From contig CARXKP010000005.1 in assembly GCA_949096025.1 (NCBI GenBank), forward strand, positions 1-52,410: DNA of 52,410 nt, given 5' to 3'. Positions 9,291 to 37,439 of this stretch are shown in pieces (position 1 is the stretch's first letter; the number at the start of each line of letters is the position of its first letter). Both the position numbers and the translations under genes were made by a program. Origin of the DNA: an uncultured Eubacteriales bacterium (GTDB lineage: Bacteria > Bacillota > Clostridia > Christensenellales > UBA1242). Under the pieces are notes generated by a model. That model worked only from the letters and a program-made list of their open reading frames with translations, ran no database searches and had not been told where the DNA came from.

Positions 9291-10133
9291 ATGAAGATTA
9301 AAAAATATTTGTTATCATTTGTTTTAATTGTGCTTGCAAGTCTACTTTTAGTGAGCGGAGTAAAAGGGGAAGTTGATAATAAACGCATTGATGTTAAGGA
9401 AATGTCTTATGCTGAGGTTATTGAGTATGAGGAAGACGAAATCGACAAAGAATTTTCTGTTGAGGCATCAAAAAATAATCAATATGCTACAAATAGTAAT
9501 CAATTAGACAATACTGAAAAAGCTATAGAAGAAGTTAAACCAGAAGAGGTTTCTATATTAGTTTTTGGTAGTTCAAAGATTAGTCTTTCACCAGACATCG
9601 CAAAGATTTGTGCCTCTATCGAAACTCTTAACAACGATATGTCAAAATCAAAGGAAGAAAATTTTCAAACTTTTAATAAGGTCATAGCAAAATTAAAGGA
9701 ACTTGGAGTTGATGAGAAAGATATCATTCTCAACCATTTTAATTGTTATCCAAATTATGACTATGGCTGTGGTAGAAATATAATAGGATATCGTTCTACA
9801 ATTTCATTTTGCGTAAATGTAAAATCTCTTGATAAAATTAAAGATTATGTTAGTGCTATGACTGAAGAGGGTGTAACTCAAATATGTGATGTAGTATATG
9901 AAGTTTCTAATATTGAAGAAGAATATAACAATGCTCTTTCAAGTGCAGTCGATAATGCAAAAACAAAGGCAGAAAAGCTTTTATCTAGAAATGACCTAAA
10001 AATTGTAAGTATCAAAGAAGAATATGTTTATTCTCATAACTGTCTTTATAGAAGTTATGCTGAGGATTATTCAGCAAGCGATATGGTAGGCAAAGTTGAA
10101 ATTGAAGCAAAAGTTTTAGTTGAATTTAATTAA
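9291..10133 (+). CDS. Secreted SIMPL/DUF541-like protein
   Basis: Signal-peptide-like N-terminus (KKYLLSFVLIVLASLLLVSG). C-terminal ..ALSSAVDNAKTKAEKLL..LKIVSIKEE pattern. ATG 9291 follows GTGGAGG. Confidence 0.55.
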   Translation: MKIKKYLLSFVLIVLASLLLVSGVKGEVDNKRIDVKEMSYAEVIEYEEDEIDKEFSVEASKNNQYATNSNQLDNTEKAIEEVKPEEVSILVFGSSKISLSPDIAKICASIETLNNDMSKSKEENFQTFNKVIAKLKELGVDEKDIILNHFNCYPNYDYGCGRNIIGYRSTISFCVNVKSLDKIKDYVSAMTEEGVTQICDVVYEVSNIEEEYNNALSSAVDNAKTKAEKLLSRNDLKIVSIKEEYVYSHNCLYRSYAEDYSASDMVGKVEIEAKVLVEFN

Positions 10134-10176
10134 ATAAAAAAAATAGCATTAGGTTTAATCTAGTGCTATTTTATTT
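10134..10176. terminator. Bidirectional terminator
   Basis: aaatagcatta / tagtgctattt imperfect stem between convergent genes, flanked by an A-run and a T-run. Confidence 0.55.
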
Positions 10177-10485
10177 TAATTTTTTAACGAGGTCTAAAAT
10201 GGTTTGTTTATTTTCGGGCGATAAATTGTTAATCATTTCAAGTAAAATTTTGTCATCGTCTTTTAAAGAAGGGCAAAAGAATTCTGTTGTGGTAACCTGT
10301 AAAATATCCAAAATATCTAAAAGCATATCAAGTGTAAGTGCTATTTCACCACTTTCAACTCTATAAAAATAAGTTTTTGAATGTCCCAACTCTAAACCCA
10401 ATTTATAAGCCGATATGTTTCTAAGATTTCTAAAATAACCTATTCTATTTAAAATTTCTTCTTTTGTTAAGTTTATATTGACCAT
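10171..10485 (-). CDS. XRE-family HTH regulator, paralogue A (104 aa)
   Basis: HTH segment ISAYKLGLELGHSKTYFYRVESGE. C-terminal LSPENKQTILDLVKKLK is shared with paralogues C and D. Own RBS AGAGG. Confidence 0.8.
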   Translation of the reverse strand: MVNINLTKEEILNRIGYFRNLRNISAYKLGLELGHSKTYFYRVESGEIALTLDMLLDILDILQVTTTEFFCPSLKDDDKILLEMINNLSPENKQTILDLVKKLK

Positions 10486-10513
10486 TTAAATACCTCTAAC
10501 TATAAGCAAAGTT

Positions 10514-10762
10514 TTATTTTTCTTTTATTTCTAATTTTTCGAAATCAAAAAGTTCGCTATCAAAAAATTCTGTCATTGTCATTCCTAATGCTCTGATAAT
10601 AAGTGCCATATTTCTAAAGTTTGGTGTTTCATATTTACAATTTAAAATATCTGTCATAGTACTATGATATAGACCAGTTTCTTGTGCTAGTTTGTATTGT
10701 GTTATTTTCTTTTCTTTCAATATTTCTCTAACTCTTAATGCAAATGCTTTATTTAATTTCAT
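10514..10762 (-). CDS. XRE-family HTH regulator, paralogue B (82 aa, no C-terminal helix)
   Basis: ITQYKLAQETGLYHSTMTDILN HTH segment. Own RBS AAGGAA. Confidence 0.75.
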   Translation of the reverse strand: MKLNKAFALRVREILKEKKITQYKLAQETGLYHSTMTDILNCKYETPNFRNMALIIRALGMTMTEFFDSELFDFEKLEIKEK

Positions 10763-10797
10763 AGAAATTCCTTATAATTTTATCGATATATAAAAGT

Positions 10798-11154
10798 TTA
10801 TTTTAAATTTTTCATTAAATCTTTAACTCTCAGTTTATTTTCTTCACTTAACTTTTTATAAAGTTCAAAGATTTCTTTTGCTTCCTTATAATTAGCAATA
10901 TCTTCAAAGAAAAATTCTTCAGGAGTAGAACCACAATTTATGATCGCATCTAATAAAACCTCTGAAGGTAAAGTCAACTCTCCACCCTCAAATTTAGAGA
11001 TATATGCTTTAGACCTGTCTATTCTTCCTGATAATTCTCGCGCAGAAAGACCTGCTCTAATTCTCATCATACCAAGTCTATCAATTAAAAATTTTTGATT
11101 AGGCGAAACTTCTTTTTTCATAGTTTCATTCATTGATAAATTTTTATTACTCAT
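10798..11154 (-). CDS. XRE-family HTH regulator, paralogue C (118 aa)
   Basis: LSARELSGRIDRSKAYISKFEGGE HTH segment. C-terminal LSEENKLRVKDLMKNLK. Confidence 0.8.
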   Translation of the reverse strand: MSNKNLSMNETMKKEVSPNQKFLIDRLGMMRIRAGLSARELSGRIDRSKAYISKFEGGELTLPSEVLLDAIINCGSTPEEFFFEDIANYKEAKEIFELYKKLSEENKLRVKDLMKNLK

Positions 11155-11178
11155 TATAATACCTCTTAAGATAAAAAC

Positions 11179-11493
11179 TTATTTTAGTTTTTTCATTAAG
11201 TCCAAAATAGTTTGTTTGCTGTCTGTTGAAAGTTTGTTAAATAAGTCTAAAACATCTTTATTTTCTTTATTATAACTGTCACCCAAATAAACAAAATCTT
11301 GCAAAGTGATGTCTACCATATCGCAAAAATCTAAAAGAGTTTTAACTTTCAATTCAATACTTTTATTTTCTATAGTTGACATAAATTGAGGATTATAACC
11401 TAATCTCAAACTTGCTTCTCTCATAGATAAATTTGCTTTTGTTCGGAAATAACCAATTCTTTTTATAATGTCGTCATAAGTGATTTTTGTCAT
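11179..11493 (-). CDS. XRE-family HTH regulator, paralogue D (104 aa)
   Basis: N-terminus IIKRIGYFRTKANLS parallels paralogue A (ILNRIGYFRNLRNIS). C-terminal LSTDSKQTILDLMKKLK. Confidence 0.8.
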   Translation of the reverse strand: MTKITYDDIIKRIGYFRTKANLSMREASLRLGYNPQFMSTIENKSIELKVKTLLDFCDMVDITLQDFVYLGDSYNKENKDVLDLFNKLSTDSKQTILDLMKKLK

Positions 11494-11508
11494 AAAATTT
11501 TTTCCTTT

Positions 11509-11931
11509 TTATTCTTTATCTAATAAATCATTAATAGGGTAGTTAAAATATTTAGAAATTTCAATTAGGGTTTGTACACTTGGATGCATACCTTTTTTCC
11601 AACGAAGCAAGTTCACTCTTGAATAATGTAAGTCTTTACTAAACTTTCTTTGTGAAATACCCGAATTTTCAATAAGACTAATAATGTTTGCATACAAATT
11701 CTTTTGTTCTAAACTATAAGGCTTAAAATTATTTTCATTGCTCATTTCAAATAAATAATCTACAGTAACGCAAAGATAATTTGCAACTTTTATCAAAGTT
11801 TTTAAACTTGGATAACGATGTTTATATTTATAAAAAGTATTTTCTGAAATAATGCCATCATCAAACATATTTTGTATTGACAAGCTTTTTTCTTCTAAAA
11901 CCTCTTTTACCTCAGATATAAAATTAGACAT
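11509..11931 (-). CDS. Tandem double-HTH XRE-family regulator (140 aa)
   Basis: Two HTH-like repeats: ..SLKTLIKVANYLCVTVDYLF and ISQRKFSKDLHYSRVNLLRWKKG..VQTLIEISKYFNYPINDLL. Confidence 0.7.
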   Translation of the reverse strand: MSNFISEVKEVLEEKSLSIQNMFDDGIISENTFYKYKHRYPSLKTLIKVANYLCVTVDYLFEMSNENNFKPYSLEQKNLYANIISLIENSGISQRKFSKDLHYSRVNLLRWKKGMHPSVQTLIEISKYFNYPINDLLDKE

Positions 11932-11964
11932 TTCTTCAATCCTTAAAATATATCTTTATTATTT

Positions 11965-12010
11965 CCTAATTTGGAGCCATTTTGCTTGCAACTGCCTAAT
12001 TTGATGCCAT
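11965..12010. repeat. Two 16-bp direct repeats (candidate operators) in the divergent intergenic region
   Basis: CCTAATTTGGAGCCAT (11965-11980) and CCTAATTTGATGCCAT (11995-12010). They match at 14 of 16 positions and start 30 bp apart. Confidence 0.6.
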
Positions 12011-12015
12011 ATAAT
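11986..12015 (+). promoter_or_regulatory. Candidate promoter of the SLOG-like gene
   Basis: TTGCAA (11986-11991), 18 nt spacer, TATAAT (12010-12015). Repeat 2 covers the spacer and the edge of the -10. Confidence 0.4.
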
Positions 12016-12047
12016 ATAATTAGAAAAAGTTTTAATAGGAGATAAGT

Positions 12048-12608
12048 ATGAGAGGAGAAAAAATATGTTCATTCTTTGGTCATAGAGAGATTAAGGGTGG
12101 TGAAGAACTTAAAGCGAAAGTCAGTGAGGTTGTTGAAGATTTGATTGTTAATTATGGGGTATTAACTTTCTTATTTGGCAGGCAAAGTGAATTTGACTCA
12201 TTATGTCATTTGGTTGTTACTGAGTTAAAAGAAAAGTATCCTGATATAAAAAGGGTTGCTTACACTTGTAAAAACGAAACTTATGTATTAGAAAGTGAAA
12301 GACTTAAATGGGAAAAGATGTATTCTCATATACTAAAAAAGGATGTTTATTTGCTTGGGGTTGAAGAAGAGTTTGAGCATAAAGCAAAATATGTTGCTGG
12401 AAAAGCAAGTTATGTAGAAAGAAACAAGGCGATGATAGATAATAGTGATTTTTGTGTATTTTATTATGATGAAAATTACGAGCCTAAATTAAAAAAATTT
12501 TCAAAAAGTAAATTATGTTATTATCAACCAAAAAGTGGTACTAAAATTGCTTATGATTATGCCAAGCGAAAAATGAAAACAATAATCAACTTATCCGAAA
12601 ATATGTAA
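12048..12608 (+). CDS. SLOG/DUF1273 (YpsA-like) family protein
   Basis: N-terminal CSFFGHREI, then ..YVERNKAMIDNSDFCVFYY.. and ..SGTKIAYDYAKRKMKTIINL, matching the remembered DUF1273 pattern. The glycine-rich loop is altered (FGRQSEFD). RBS AGGAG. Confidence 0.55.
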   Translation: MRGEKICSFFGHREIKGGEELKAKVSEVVEDLIVNYGVLTFLFGRQSEFDSLCHLVVTELKEKYPDIKRVAYTCKNETYVLESERLKWEKMYSHILKKDVYLLGVEEEFEHKAKYVAGKASYVERNKAMIDNSDFCVFYYDENYEPKLKKFSKSKLCYYQPKSGTKIAYDYAKRKMKTIINLSENM

Positions 12609-37348: not shown

Positions 37349-37439
37349 TGGCGGGAAGAGAGGGATTTGAACCCTCGCGCCGGTTGCCCGACCTACAGCC
37401 TTAGCAGGGCCGCCTCTTCGACCACTTGAGTATCTCCCC
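37349..37439 (-). tRNA. tRNA-Ser (anticodon GCU), class II with long variable arm, encoded CCA
   Basis: The reverse complement folds by hand. Acceptor stem GGGGAGA/TCTTCCC (one G-U), D arm CTC..GAG, anticodon stem CGGCC/GGCTG with loop CT-GCT-AA, long variable arm, T arm GAGGG-TTCAAAT-CCCTC, then G-CCA. Confidence 0.85.

Follow-up and report, generated by a model that had tools for sequence, protein, structure and literature searches.

The stretch analysed here (positions 1 to 52,410 of contig CARXKP010000005.1, assembly GCA_949096025.1, from an uncultured Eubacteriales bacterium; hereafter the window) carries on its minus strand, at 10171-11931, five consecutive genes (A to E) for XRE-family helix-turn-helix (HTH) proteins, which face a plus-strand gene for a 186-aa SLOG protein of the YpsA family. 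The reading we favour, with modest confidence, is that the locus is a repressor-gated YpsA-family SLOG gene whose divergent operon holds a stack of lineage-specific XRE regulators. An original prediction, made from the sequence alone, had described five tandem HTH genes 15-35 bp apart, each with its own ribosome-binding site (RBS), and the open reading frame (ORF) coordinates confirm this: A (10171..10485; 104 aa), B (10514..10762; 82 aa), C (10798..11154; 118 aa), D (11179..11493; 104 aa) and the promoter-proximal E (11509..11931; 140 aa), all on the minus strand, are separated by 28, 35, 24 and 15 bp respectively, start with ATG throughout, and are each preceded by a GGAG/AGGA-type RBS. Between E and the start of the SLOG gene (12048..12608, plus strand; an AGGAG RBS is read at 12037..12041, plus strand) lies a divergent control region of 116 bp.

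The pairing of the two gene types extends well beyond this genome. Scanning one genome per species yielded 80 loci with orthologues of the SLOG gene (53-70% identity); eight of them start at the SLOG gene, the upstream side being out of view, and the counts use the other 72. A divergent XRE gene lies immediately upstream of the SLOG gene in 59 of the 72 (one gene in 49 loci, two in seven and three in three), and the remaining 13 have a structured RNA leader instead. XRE matches elsewhere in the flanks of the SLOG loci amounted to a handful only. Since the neighbours beyond the XRE-SLOG pair vary by locus, the conserved unit is one or more XRE genes facing SLOG, and by these counts the putative XRE-SLOG regulatory module is conserved. 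Thus two premises of the original prediction, a linkage kept across species and a SLOG fold (below), were both borne out. Its statement that no system of such architecture has been described also agrees with our literature search, in which, apparently, neither a divergent XRE-YpsA/SLOG module nor an attached XRE array or RNA leader has been reported.

To our knowledge, YpsA-family SLOG proteins are widespread in Firmicutes and phages and have no known biochemical function. The assignment of the 186-aa protein to this family, proposed earlier from its sequence, is supported by profile and fold alike: it scores 30.6 bits against Pfam PF06908 (YpsA/DUF1273; gathering cut-off 27.7, E 4e-7), its homologues carry source names such as "DUF1273 family protein" or "SLOG family protein", and its structure model (21 homologues; predicted local distance difference test (pLDDT) 76, predicted template-modelling score (pTM) 0.74) adopts an alpha/beta Rossmannoid fold. 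The top Foldseek match of the model was B. subtilis YpsA (2NX2; E 2.9e-7, template-modelling score (TM) 0.63), followed by DprA, the SLOG domain of ThsA and a LOG-like molybdenum cofactor (Moco) carrier protein; a profile sequence search of the PDB gave nothing at E<=1, so the fold comparison was needed to find 2NX2. Moreover, the subfamily profile aligned with the canonical YpsA of a related locus (itself 98.7 bits to Pfam) at an hhalign probability of 96% (E 4.7e-9).

The sequence of the protein is marked by the motifs CSFFGHR after strand 1, FLFG(S/R)xSxFD after strand 2 and ERNxAMIxxSD, and by insertions at ~77-115 and 144-160. In the alignment, the GHR loop after strand 1 and ERNxxM(I/V)xxS are common to this protein and canonical YpsA. 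The GxD/E signature after strand 2, which corresponds to G53 and E55 of B. subtilis YpsA (PMC6459960), is altered: canonical TGMAEGFD aligns with FGRQSEFD, the window protein keeps the acidic residue, and the glycine is replaced by E/D/N in the subfamily; D50 lies outside the columns conserved at >=90%. Pairing with gpsB defines the "YpsA proper" clade (PMC6459960), and the window gene has no gpsB-like neighbour, being flanked by the XRE array and uppP. Within the YpsA family it is divergent and falls outside the gpsB-linked "YpsA proper" clade, belonging to a subfamily of which ~1,700 protein clusters were recovered in the homologue search. Known contexts of the YpsA family comprise gpsB, a phosphoribosyltransferase (PRTase), nicotinamide adenine dinucleotide (NAD) salvage genes and nucleotide-centred conflict systems (PMC6459960), and viral SLOG domains are sporadically fused to HTH domains (PMC9503650). 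Invariant polar residues of the window protein follow strand 1 (G11, H12 and R13) and strand 3 (T73, C74, E77, E82, E84 and R85), and loops at such positions are the nucleotide contact or processing sites of this Rossmannoid class (PMC9503650); thus the protein would be an enzyme or a tight ligand binder, and not a scaffold.

The control region contains a predicted sigma-70-like promoter for the SLOG gene, TTGCAA-18-TATAAT (10/12 match), of which the -35 (11986..11991, plus strand) recurs as the same hexamer in the same place in loci L111/L113, and the -10 lies at 12010..12015 (plus strand). Two operator-like direct repeats of 16 bp bracket the -35: CCTAATTTGGAGCCAT (11965..11980, plus strand) ends just upstream of it, at a position kept in E-type loci, and CCTAATTTGATGCCAT (11995..12010, plus strand) occupies the 18-nt spacer and overlaps the first base of the -10. 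A possible third site, partial and inverted (CTAATTAT; 12016..12023, minus strand), follows right after the -10, where loci with CCTAATT-type sites (L020, L022 and L068) have a full palindrome, GTCCTAATTAGGAC.

Among the regulator classes inspected, each comes with its own repeat at the SLOG promoter: direct repeats ATATTTAAGGAAAA(A)CGG, 53 nt apart, for the B family; GTATTCAnnnTGAATAC plus an upstream half-site for the 99-aa long family; ATGATTGAnnnTCAATCAT for one A/D subgroup; TTACGGAGTTTCGTAA for a first further short family; and GTCCTAATTAGGAC plus CCTAATT(T/C)GG for a second. Typically one copy lies upstream of or in the -35 region, and the other overlaps or just follows the (extended) -10. 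YpsA-family genes with a divergent E orthologue (50-82% identity) occur in L111-113 and L116/117, and these YpsA genes are of a different, canonical subfamily. Their promoters carry two direct repeats of the form GCCTAAnnTGrwGmCA, the second between -35 and -10, in the layouts GCCTATTTTGGAGCCAT-N5-TTGCAA-CTG-CCTAATATGATGCCAT-ATAAT (L111/113) and GCCTAAAATGATGACAA...TTTACAACTG-CCTAAAATGATGACAT-AATAT (L116/117), and the paired repeats co-vary among E-type loci. On the other hand, none of the B, long-99-aa, TTACGG and A/D operator types was found in the 52-kb window with <=3 mismatches allowed. The control region of the window thus appears to carry E-type sites, the only operator type present in its 116 bp, and since this single type is laid out as in the orthologous E-YpsA loci, we infer E to be the direct repressor of the SLOG gene. 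The asymmetric 16-bp site would fit a protein with two non-identical HTH domains, and the first HTH domain of E (E1) shows its greatest similarity, a weak one, to the short family with CCTAATT sites at its loci.

The five XRE proteins are of unequal kinship. Pfam HTH models are matched above cut-off by A (HTH_3, 30.3 vs 23 bits), B (HTH_26, 45.5 vs 22), C (HTH_31, 34.3 vs 27) and E (HTH_19, 43.7 vs 30.2, plus two HTH_26 stretches), D alone falling under it (17.5 vs 23 bits). The description of the array as five paralogues stands for A, C and D, which are 33-39% identical pairwise over ~95 residues (A vs D 39%, A vs C 33%; z 22-27 against shuffles), but not for B and E, which belong to other XRE subfamilies and are only distant from A/C/D and from one another (z<6). 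Two architectures can be distinguished: i) a short type of ~80 aa, comprising B and each half of E; and ii) a long type of ~100-118 aa, comprising A, C (with an N-terminal extension) and D, in which the HTH domain is followed by a C-terminal helical extension. In agreement with the original prediction, B (an HTH domain with a short acidic tail) is without that extension, A and D have I..RIGYFR in common, and E is an internal duplication with two tandem HTH domains (E1 vs E2, 17/51 identical, z 5.9). The motif LS.E.K..(I/V).DL(V/M)K.LK is likewise present in A, C and D, but what had been taken for one extra helix is predicted as two in the model of D.

This model, made for D only among the XRE proteins (AlphaFold, 20 orthologues, pLDDT 86), has HTH helices at 6-19, 24-31, 37-43, 46-59 and 64-73 and a C-terminal extension of two helices, H6 (76-87) and H7 (90-103). 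Over its full length the model is closest in the PDB to SinR, from the SinR/SinI complex (1B0N_A; 97 aligned columns, E 7e-3, TM 0.52), and then to a C. difficile transposon-related XRE protein (3IVP; E up to 2e-2, TM ~0.5), both matches being weak; the HTH domain by itself resembles SinR, HipB, C-proteins (C.BclI, C.Esp1396I and C.EcoT38IS) and the 434 repressor. At the sequence level, the NCBIfam SlrR model is reached by B, C and E only, in the HTH part only, at 16.7-18.9 bits against a cut-off of 250, and a PDB sequence search with C found generic XRE HTH domains only. Thus the predicted likeness to SinR/SlrR/SinI holds for the two-helix C-terminus and for the (weak) best full-length match, but not for sequence membership in SlrR nor for a SinI-like partner (below). 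In PADLOC-DB 2.0 the XRE proteins weakly match models for CapH, C-protein ("control protein"), the RmrA N-terminus and HTH_VI; the C-protein, CapH and RmrA-type matches belong to A, B and C (the CapH match of C being full-length), and those of C-protein/CapH type (E 1e-5 to 1e-9) reflect the generic HTH fold.

Across species, the SLOG-adjacent regulators form ~7 clusters at >=45% identity (the B, A/D and C families, a 99-110-aa long family, two further short families and the E type), and every window regulator has orthologues that are SLOG-proximal in some other species. Besides the E orthologues, close orthologues of B (phmmer 143-162 bits) are SLOG-proximal in ~9 loci (e.g., L005, L009, L025, L036, L046, L053, L073 and L082), the B cluster at 45% identity holding 21 proteins; those of D, 75-85% identical and with a mean column identity of 85% over 20 species-level proteins, adjoin SLOG in L006-8, L014, L018, L021, L029, L034, L081, L088, L091 and L103; those of A do so in L037 and L065; and one of C is part of the array C-B-SLOG of L053. 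Composition and order of the arrays vary: E-D-C-B-A in the window, and B-C, B'-D, B-E-E'-x or C-A-D elsewhere, where arrays count one to four members in shuffled order, the five of the window being the largest stack found. In a neighbour-joining tree, SLOG proteins with different XRE classes are thoroughly intermixed, and SLOGs that are nearly identical carry B-, A/D-, 99-aa- or TTACGG-type regulators, which implies that regulators have been exchanged often. Furthermore, genomes with two or three SLOG paralogues mostly have a different control element for each paralogue: B, A/D and CCTAATT types in LOHA03_bin.029, and the 99-aa type together with the RNA type in HGM11410, SIG385 and two Christensenellaceae metagenome-assembled genomes.

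XRE genes of these classes also occur by themselves. Orthologues of D lie without SLOG, solitary or beside unrelated genes, in L086, L090 and L096-L101. An identical D-type protein is found next to peptide deformylase in L090 (4500-5315) and L091 (226-1768), with matching neighbours in both contigs, and a 188-aa SLOG lies between the two only in L091, which is a presence/absence polymorphism of SLOG. In L114 (3158-5142; GCA_949294485.1), a four-gene array with B-type operator repeats (a B orthologue, an E-like double HTH, a second double HTH and a short type) faces a 134-aa protein without Pfam match, and no SLOG. In L111-L113 (1919-3889), the canonical YpsA that faces the E orthologue is cut to 91 aa in L112/L113; a circularly permuted YpsA gene (PF12694, cpYpsA) lies ~1 kb off, and the XRE genes are followed by genes for a MobL relaxase, an HTH_17 protein and a tyrosine integrase.

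The 13 loci without XRE genes have, in this order, a strong promoter (TTGACTTTTTT-N-TATAAT), a conserved RNA of ~215 nt, usually a terminator, and the SLOG start. The RNA is found upstream of SLOG orthologues in 12-13 species, as single copies in L043 (5703-5927), L063 (5702-5927), L071 (5693-5926), L054 (440-651), L083 (5669-5911), L079 (5708-5927), L049 (5690-5919) and L057 (5686-5912), and as two copies per locus in L056 (5452-5694 and 5772-5993), L072 (5642-5910 and 6677-6931) and L052 (2102-2331 and 2381-2607); it stands in tandem in L056 and L052, and ahead of a CotH-kinase gene in L072. Four helices make up the structure derived from 14 copies: P1 (12 bp), which closes off the domain; P2 (9 bp); an inner hairpin of 8 bp; and P3, which has a GNRA cap and resembles a terminator. 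In this alignment 95.4% of cells are paired and compensatory changes occur in 20 of the 39 pairs, values matched by 0 of 500 shuffles, while slid controls gave 4-7 compensatory pairs. Moreover, the segment just 3' of P1 can pair, with covariation, with the 5' half of P3, an antiterminator pattern. The leader matches no family in Rfam 15 (at gathering thresholds and at E<=1), the search finding only tRNAs; it is a candidate for a new riboswitch or cis-regulatory RNA class. On the SLOG tree, SLOGs of the RNA type group for the most part in one coherent clade; the RNA is absent from the window. Since an RNA leader stands in the XRE-less loci, SLOG appears to be under dedicated, and probably ligand-responsive, control throughout the clade.

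Natural variation in wild strains of the species to which the window belongs separates the fates of the regulators. B is truncated to 51 aa by a 1-nt deletion at 10626 (L001, L092 and run X10), and two independent events cut E short at about residue 111: W111* (11599 C>T) in L001, X28 and X29, and a 1-nt deletion within the T6 run 11593-11598 in L092 and L107. The SLOG gene is intact in strains with broken B or E. The ratios of synonymous to non-synonymous changes were 8/3 for A, 11/0 and 14/2 for C, and 6/2 and 5/1 for D, as against 7/6 for B, 4/4 for E and 7/9 for the SLOG gene of L107. By this measure A, C and D are under purifying selection, and E and SLOG look relaxed in some strains. Thus, with polymorphism mostly synonymous in A, C and D and not in B, E and the L107 SLOG, the former three appear to be maintained for a role independent of E or SLOG. 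The complete five-gene array was also recovered, 100% identical, from many independent mouse-gut metagenomes; these runs and the source names of homologues indicate a mouse-gut member of the Clostridia (Christensenellales, Caccovivens-like) as the uncultured source. Separately, metatranscriptomes X1 and X2 contain contigs in which 34 unrelated bases (AAATTATTGATATTTTAAATTGCAACATTAAGCA) connect 10790 with 12024. Such contigs would represent either a co-resident strain with only A and B before SLOG or an assembly chimera, and the junction is absent from the four other runs compared (three of DNA and one of undetermined type).

Assembled mouse-gut metatranscriptomes contain the region. In X2, contigs end at 11924 and restart at 12007, leaving the promoter region uncovered, as expected of two divergent transcripts; in X5, one contig reaches 12031 and crosses the promoter region. 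X1 shows a flat depth, and its contigs run across the ends of convergent genes, so that its signal may include carried-over DNA.

Under the repressor-gated reading, E would bind both repeats, probably as one two-domain protein per asymmetric site, and the bound E would occlude RNA polymerase and keep SLOG off; E would probably also autoregulate the divergent operon. A signal would relieve this repression, and the derepressed SLOG protein would bind or process a nucleotide-type ligand. A, B, C and D would not be extra inputs on the SLOG promoter: each is of a class that is SLOG-proximal elsewhere, and swapping or accretion of regulators may have brought them together in one operon. Most likely they would act in trans on other promoters, possibly those of SLOG paralogues outside the window, and A, C and D may homo-oligomerise, and perhaps hetero-oligomerise, via a SinR-like two-helix C-terminal domain.

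Several points weigh against this reading: i) the assignment of the operator to E draws on position and cross-species conservation, the in-window statistic for the 16-bp repeat being circular, as the pattern was derived from its two copies; ii) the XRE operon's own promoter was not located; iii) some strains have a truncated E and an intact SLOG, implying that repression is dispensable, that the truncated E is functional, or that another member of the array represses; iv) the RNA evidence consists of unstranded Logan contigs, which may include DNA; and v) the trans targets of A-D would lie beyond the 52 kb of genome visible.

A bolder version, to which we give a low probability, sees in the SLOG promoter a plug-in socket for at least six XRE classes and a riboswitch-like RNA, in the SLOG protein a tightly regulated nucleotide-signal or nucleotide-damage enzyme of gut Clostridia, and in A, C and D a heteromeric network acting over SLOG paralogues or other targets. 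If true, the whole would amount to a system new in its regulation and physiology, to which a new class of RNA belongs.

Comparably doubtful in our view is that the XRE-SLOG pair is a conflict module (anti-phage, toxin-antitoxin-like or mobile cargo), with SLOG as the effector and the XRE protein as a safety catch of the kind that C-proteins provide; that SLOG would then be growth-arresting, nucleotide-depleting or signal-degrading seems equally doubtful. The proposal is consistent with the patchy distribution, variable context, two to three paralogues per genome and swapped regulators of the SLOG genes, with the gain or loss of SLOG beside the same D protein (L091 and L090), with the weak C-protein, CapH and RmrA-type matches of A, B and C, with the occurrence of YpsA-clade SLOG domains in conflict systems and phages (PMC6459960, PMC9503650), and with a GC content of 26% over the XRE array (10001-12000) against ~32% window-wide. 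Some SLOG copies also lie near MobL and integrase genes or near serine recombinases, but a recombinase or relaxase within 6 kb was counted in only ~6 of the 80 loci, a lower bound, the count having used three seed proteins only. Moreover, the SLOG protein matches no defence-system model in PADLOC-DB 2.0, this SLOG subfamily occurs in 1 viral contig of the 2.9 million in IMG/VR, phage and plasmid relatives are overall 24-32% identical (the latter being five weak matches), the genes flanking the locus are housekeeping genes (for a MurJ-like flippase, SIMPL, UppP and a P-type Ca-ATPase), strains without a functional E retain an intact SLOG, and control of 13 loci by a riboswitch-like leader is more in keeping with a gene of metabolism or physiology than with a toxin. 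That SLOG is a lethal toxin is made somewhat less likely by the viability of E-null strains, by the RNA leader as an alternative control and by the housekeeping contexts.

Relatives of the SLOG protein in the phage collection INPHARED (24-31% identical) belong to SPbeta-like phages (YoqJ homologues), AR9/PBS1 and B. anthracis phages. The best "phage" match, MT835511, was set aside as an unverified scaffold with a PEP-utilising-enzyme gene, probably bacterial, and a phage origin of the subfamily was rejected, given its near absence from viral contigs and the low identity of its phage relatives. The sole viral-contig relative, L085 (7057-8576; IMGVR_UViG_3300029305_012047), has a co-directional XRE gene immediately upstream and a second, divergent one; the two XRE proteins carry a similar helix motif at their C-terminal ends, and next to their genes lie two for serine recombinases.

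Less probable still is the interpretation put forward by the original prediction, namely that the five XREs converge on the SLOG promoter, directly or via SinR/SlrR-like heteromers, as a multi-input or bistable switch gating a toxic SLOG. The five genes do form a tight co-oriented block with SLOG as the only divergent neighbour, the C-terminal two-helix domain is highly similar among A, C and D with SinR as the best full-length structural match, other species repeatedly have arrays of two to four XRE genes ahead of SLOG, and overproduction of YpsA blocks division in B. subtilis (PMC6459960). However, the 116-bp region carries a single operator type; B and E are pseudogenes in natural strains, with A, C and D under purifying selection; composition and order of the array are not conserved; a single regulator suffices in 49 of the 59 XRE-linked loci; and D, as well as B/E arrays, also exist without SLOG. 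Furthermore, no HTH-less SinI-like gene was found: no extra ORF >=40 aa fits between A-E, and all five have an HTH domain. On this evidence neither the five-input switch on SLOG nor a toxic SLOG was upheld. That the array is a decaying remnant of an old prophage or of the immunity region of an integrative and conjugative element (ICE), its adjacency to SLOG being incidental, is very improbable, since the PHROGs phage-repressor matches of the XRE genes, the broken B and E of some strains and the low GC are set against linkage in 59 of 72 species loci, cognate repeats on the SLOG promoter in each class inspected, strong purifying selection on A, C and D, D orthologues 75-85% identical across species, a full array 100% identical in many metagenomes and no phage structural or integration genes near the array, so that the conservation data largely refute it.

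The surroundings of the locus are as follows. A hairpin with a 15-pair stem and a T-run (10140..10172), between the end of the convergent SIMPL gene (10133) and that of A (10171), is likely a bidirectional terminator closing the XRE operon. No additional SLOG or XRE paralogue was found by tblastn in the 52-kb window. The GC skew flips locally at 10001-12000, as expected for minus-strand genes. Farther off, a T-box leader (Rfam RF00230, 100.6 bits) lies at 218-391, upstream of a 441-aa ORF (403-1728), and the minus strand carries a tRNA at 37352-37439.

The five-gene array is thus less remarkable than at first sight, not being demonstrably a single device, and the interest of the locus lies more in the principle of interchangeable controllers and in the RNA motif than in the array itself. 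A large YpsA subfamily would be almost always under dedicated transcriptional control, by a cognate XRE or an RNA leader, and knowing what relieves the XREs or binds the RNA would point to the SLOG ligand. Moreover, the control of one gene by six or more repressor classes and by an RNA is a natural experiment in regulator exchange, and gut Clostridia may in this way offer orthogonal repressor/operator pairs.

Several known systems resemble parts of the locus, and membership fails for SinR/SlrR, for CapH/CapP, for type II toxin-antitoxin (TA) and for known defence systems. The SLOG protein has the fold and family of YpsA (2NX2), SPbeta YoqJ and PF06908, with a GHR/GY[KR]-type loop and the ERN..(I/V)..S motif, but it differs in having no gpsB neighbour, a replaced glycine in the GxD/E signature (SEFD), two insertions and several invariant Cys and His residues, and regulation by a divergent XRE or an RNA leader is not described for YpsA. 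Phage CI/Cro immunity regions are similar in their divergent transcription from a short, operator-rich region and in their mosaic, swappable regulators, whereas the window locus is chromosomal, with no Cro-like partner and no phage genes, and its SLOG subfamily is nearly absent from viral contigs. Xre-RES and type II TA systems offer an analogy in that they, too, combine an XRE protein with a small enzyme that acts in nucleotide or NAD metabolism, in patchy and multi-copy distribution; on the other hand, XRE and SLOG are divergent around a shared 116-bp control region and not bicistronic, and XRE-null strains with an intact SLOG are viable. With the SinR/SlrR/SinI system of B. subtilis the long regulators share an XRE protein of ~105-115 aa made of a five-helix HTH and a C-terminal two-helix oligomerisation domain, the latter being common to paralogues, which makes heteromers conceivable; the differences are the weakness of the D match (E 7e-3, TM 0.52), SlrR scores of 17-19 bits against 250, the lack of a SinI-like antagonist in the window locus, and a target that is SLOG and not the matrix operons. 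Finally, like the C proteins of restriction-modification systems and the CapH of cyclic-oligonucleotide-based anti-phage signalling systems (CBASS), the locus combines a small XRE protein with repeats that overlap the promoter of a potentially harmful neighbour, although it has no restriction enzyme, methylase, CBASS genes or CapP protease. By analogy, therefore, the nearest functional counterparts would be C-protein/CapH-type control for the module and SinR for the long regulators.

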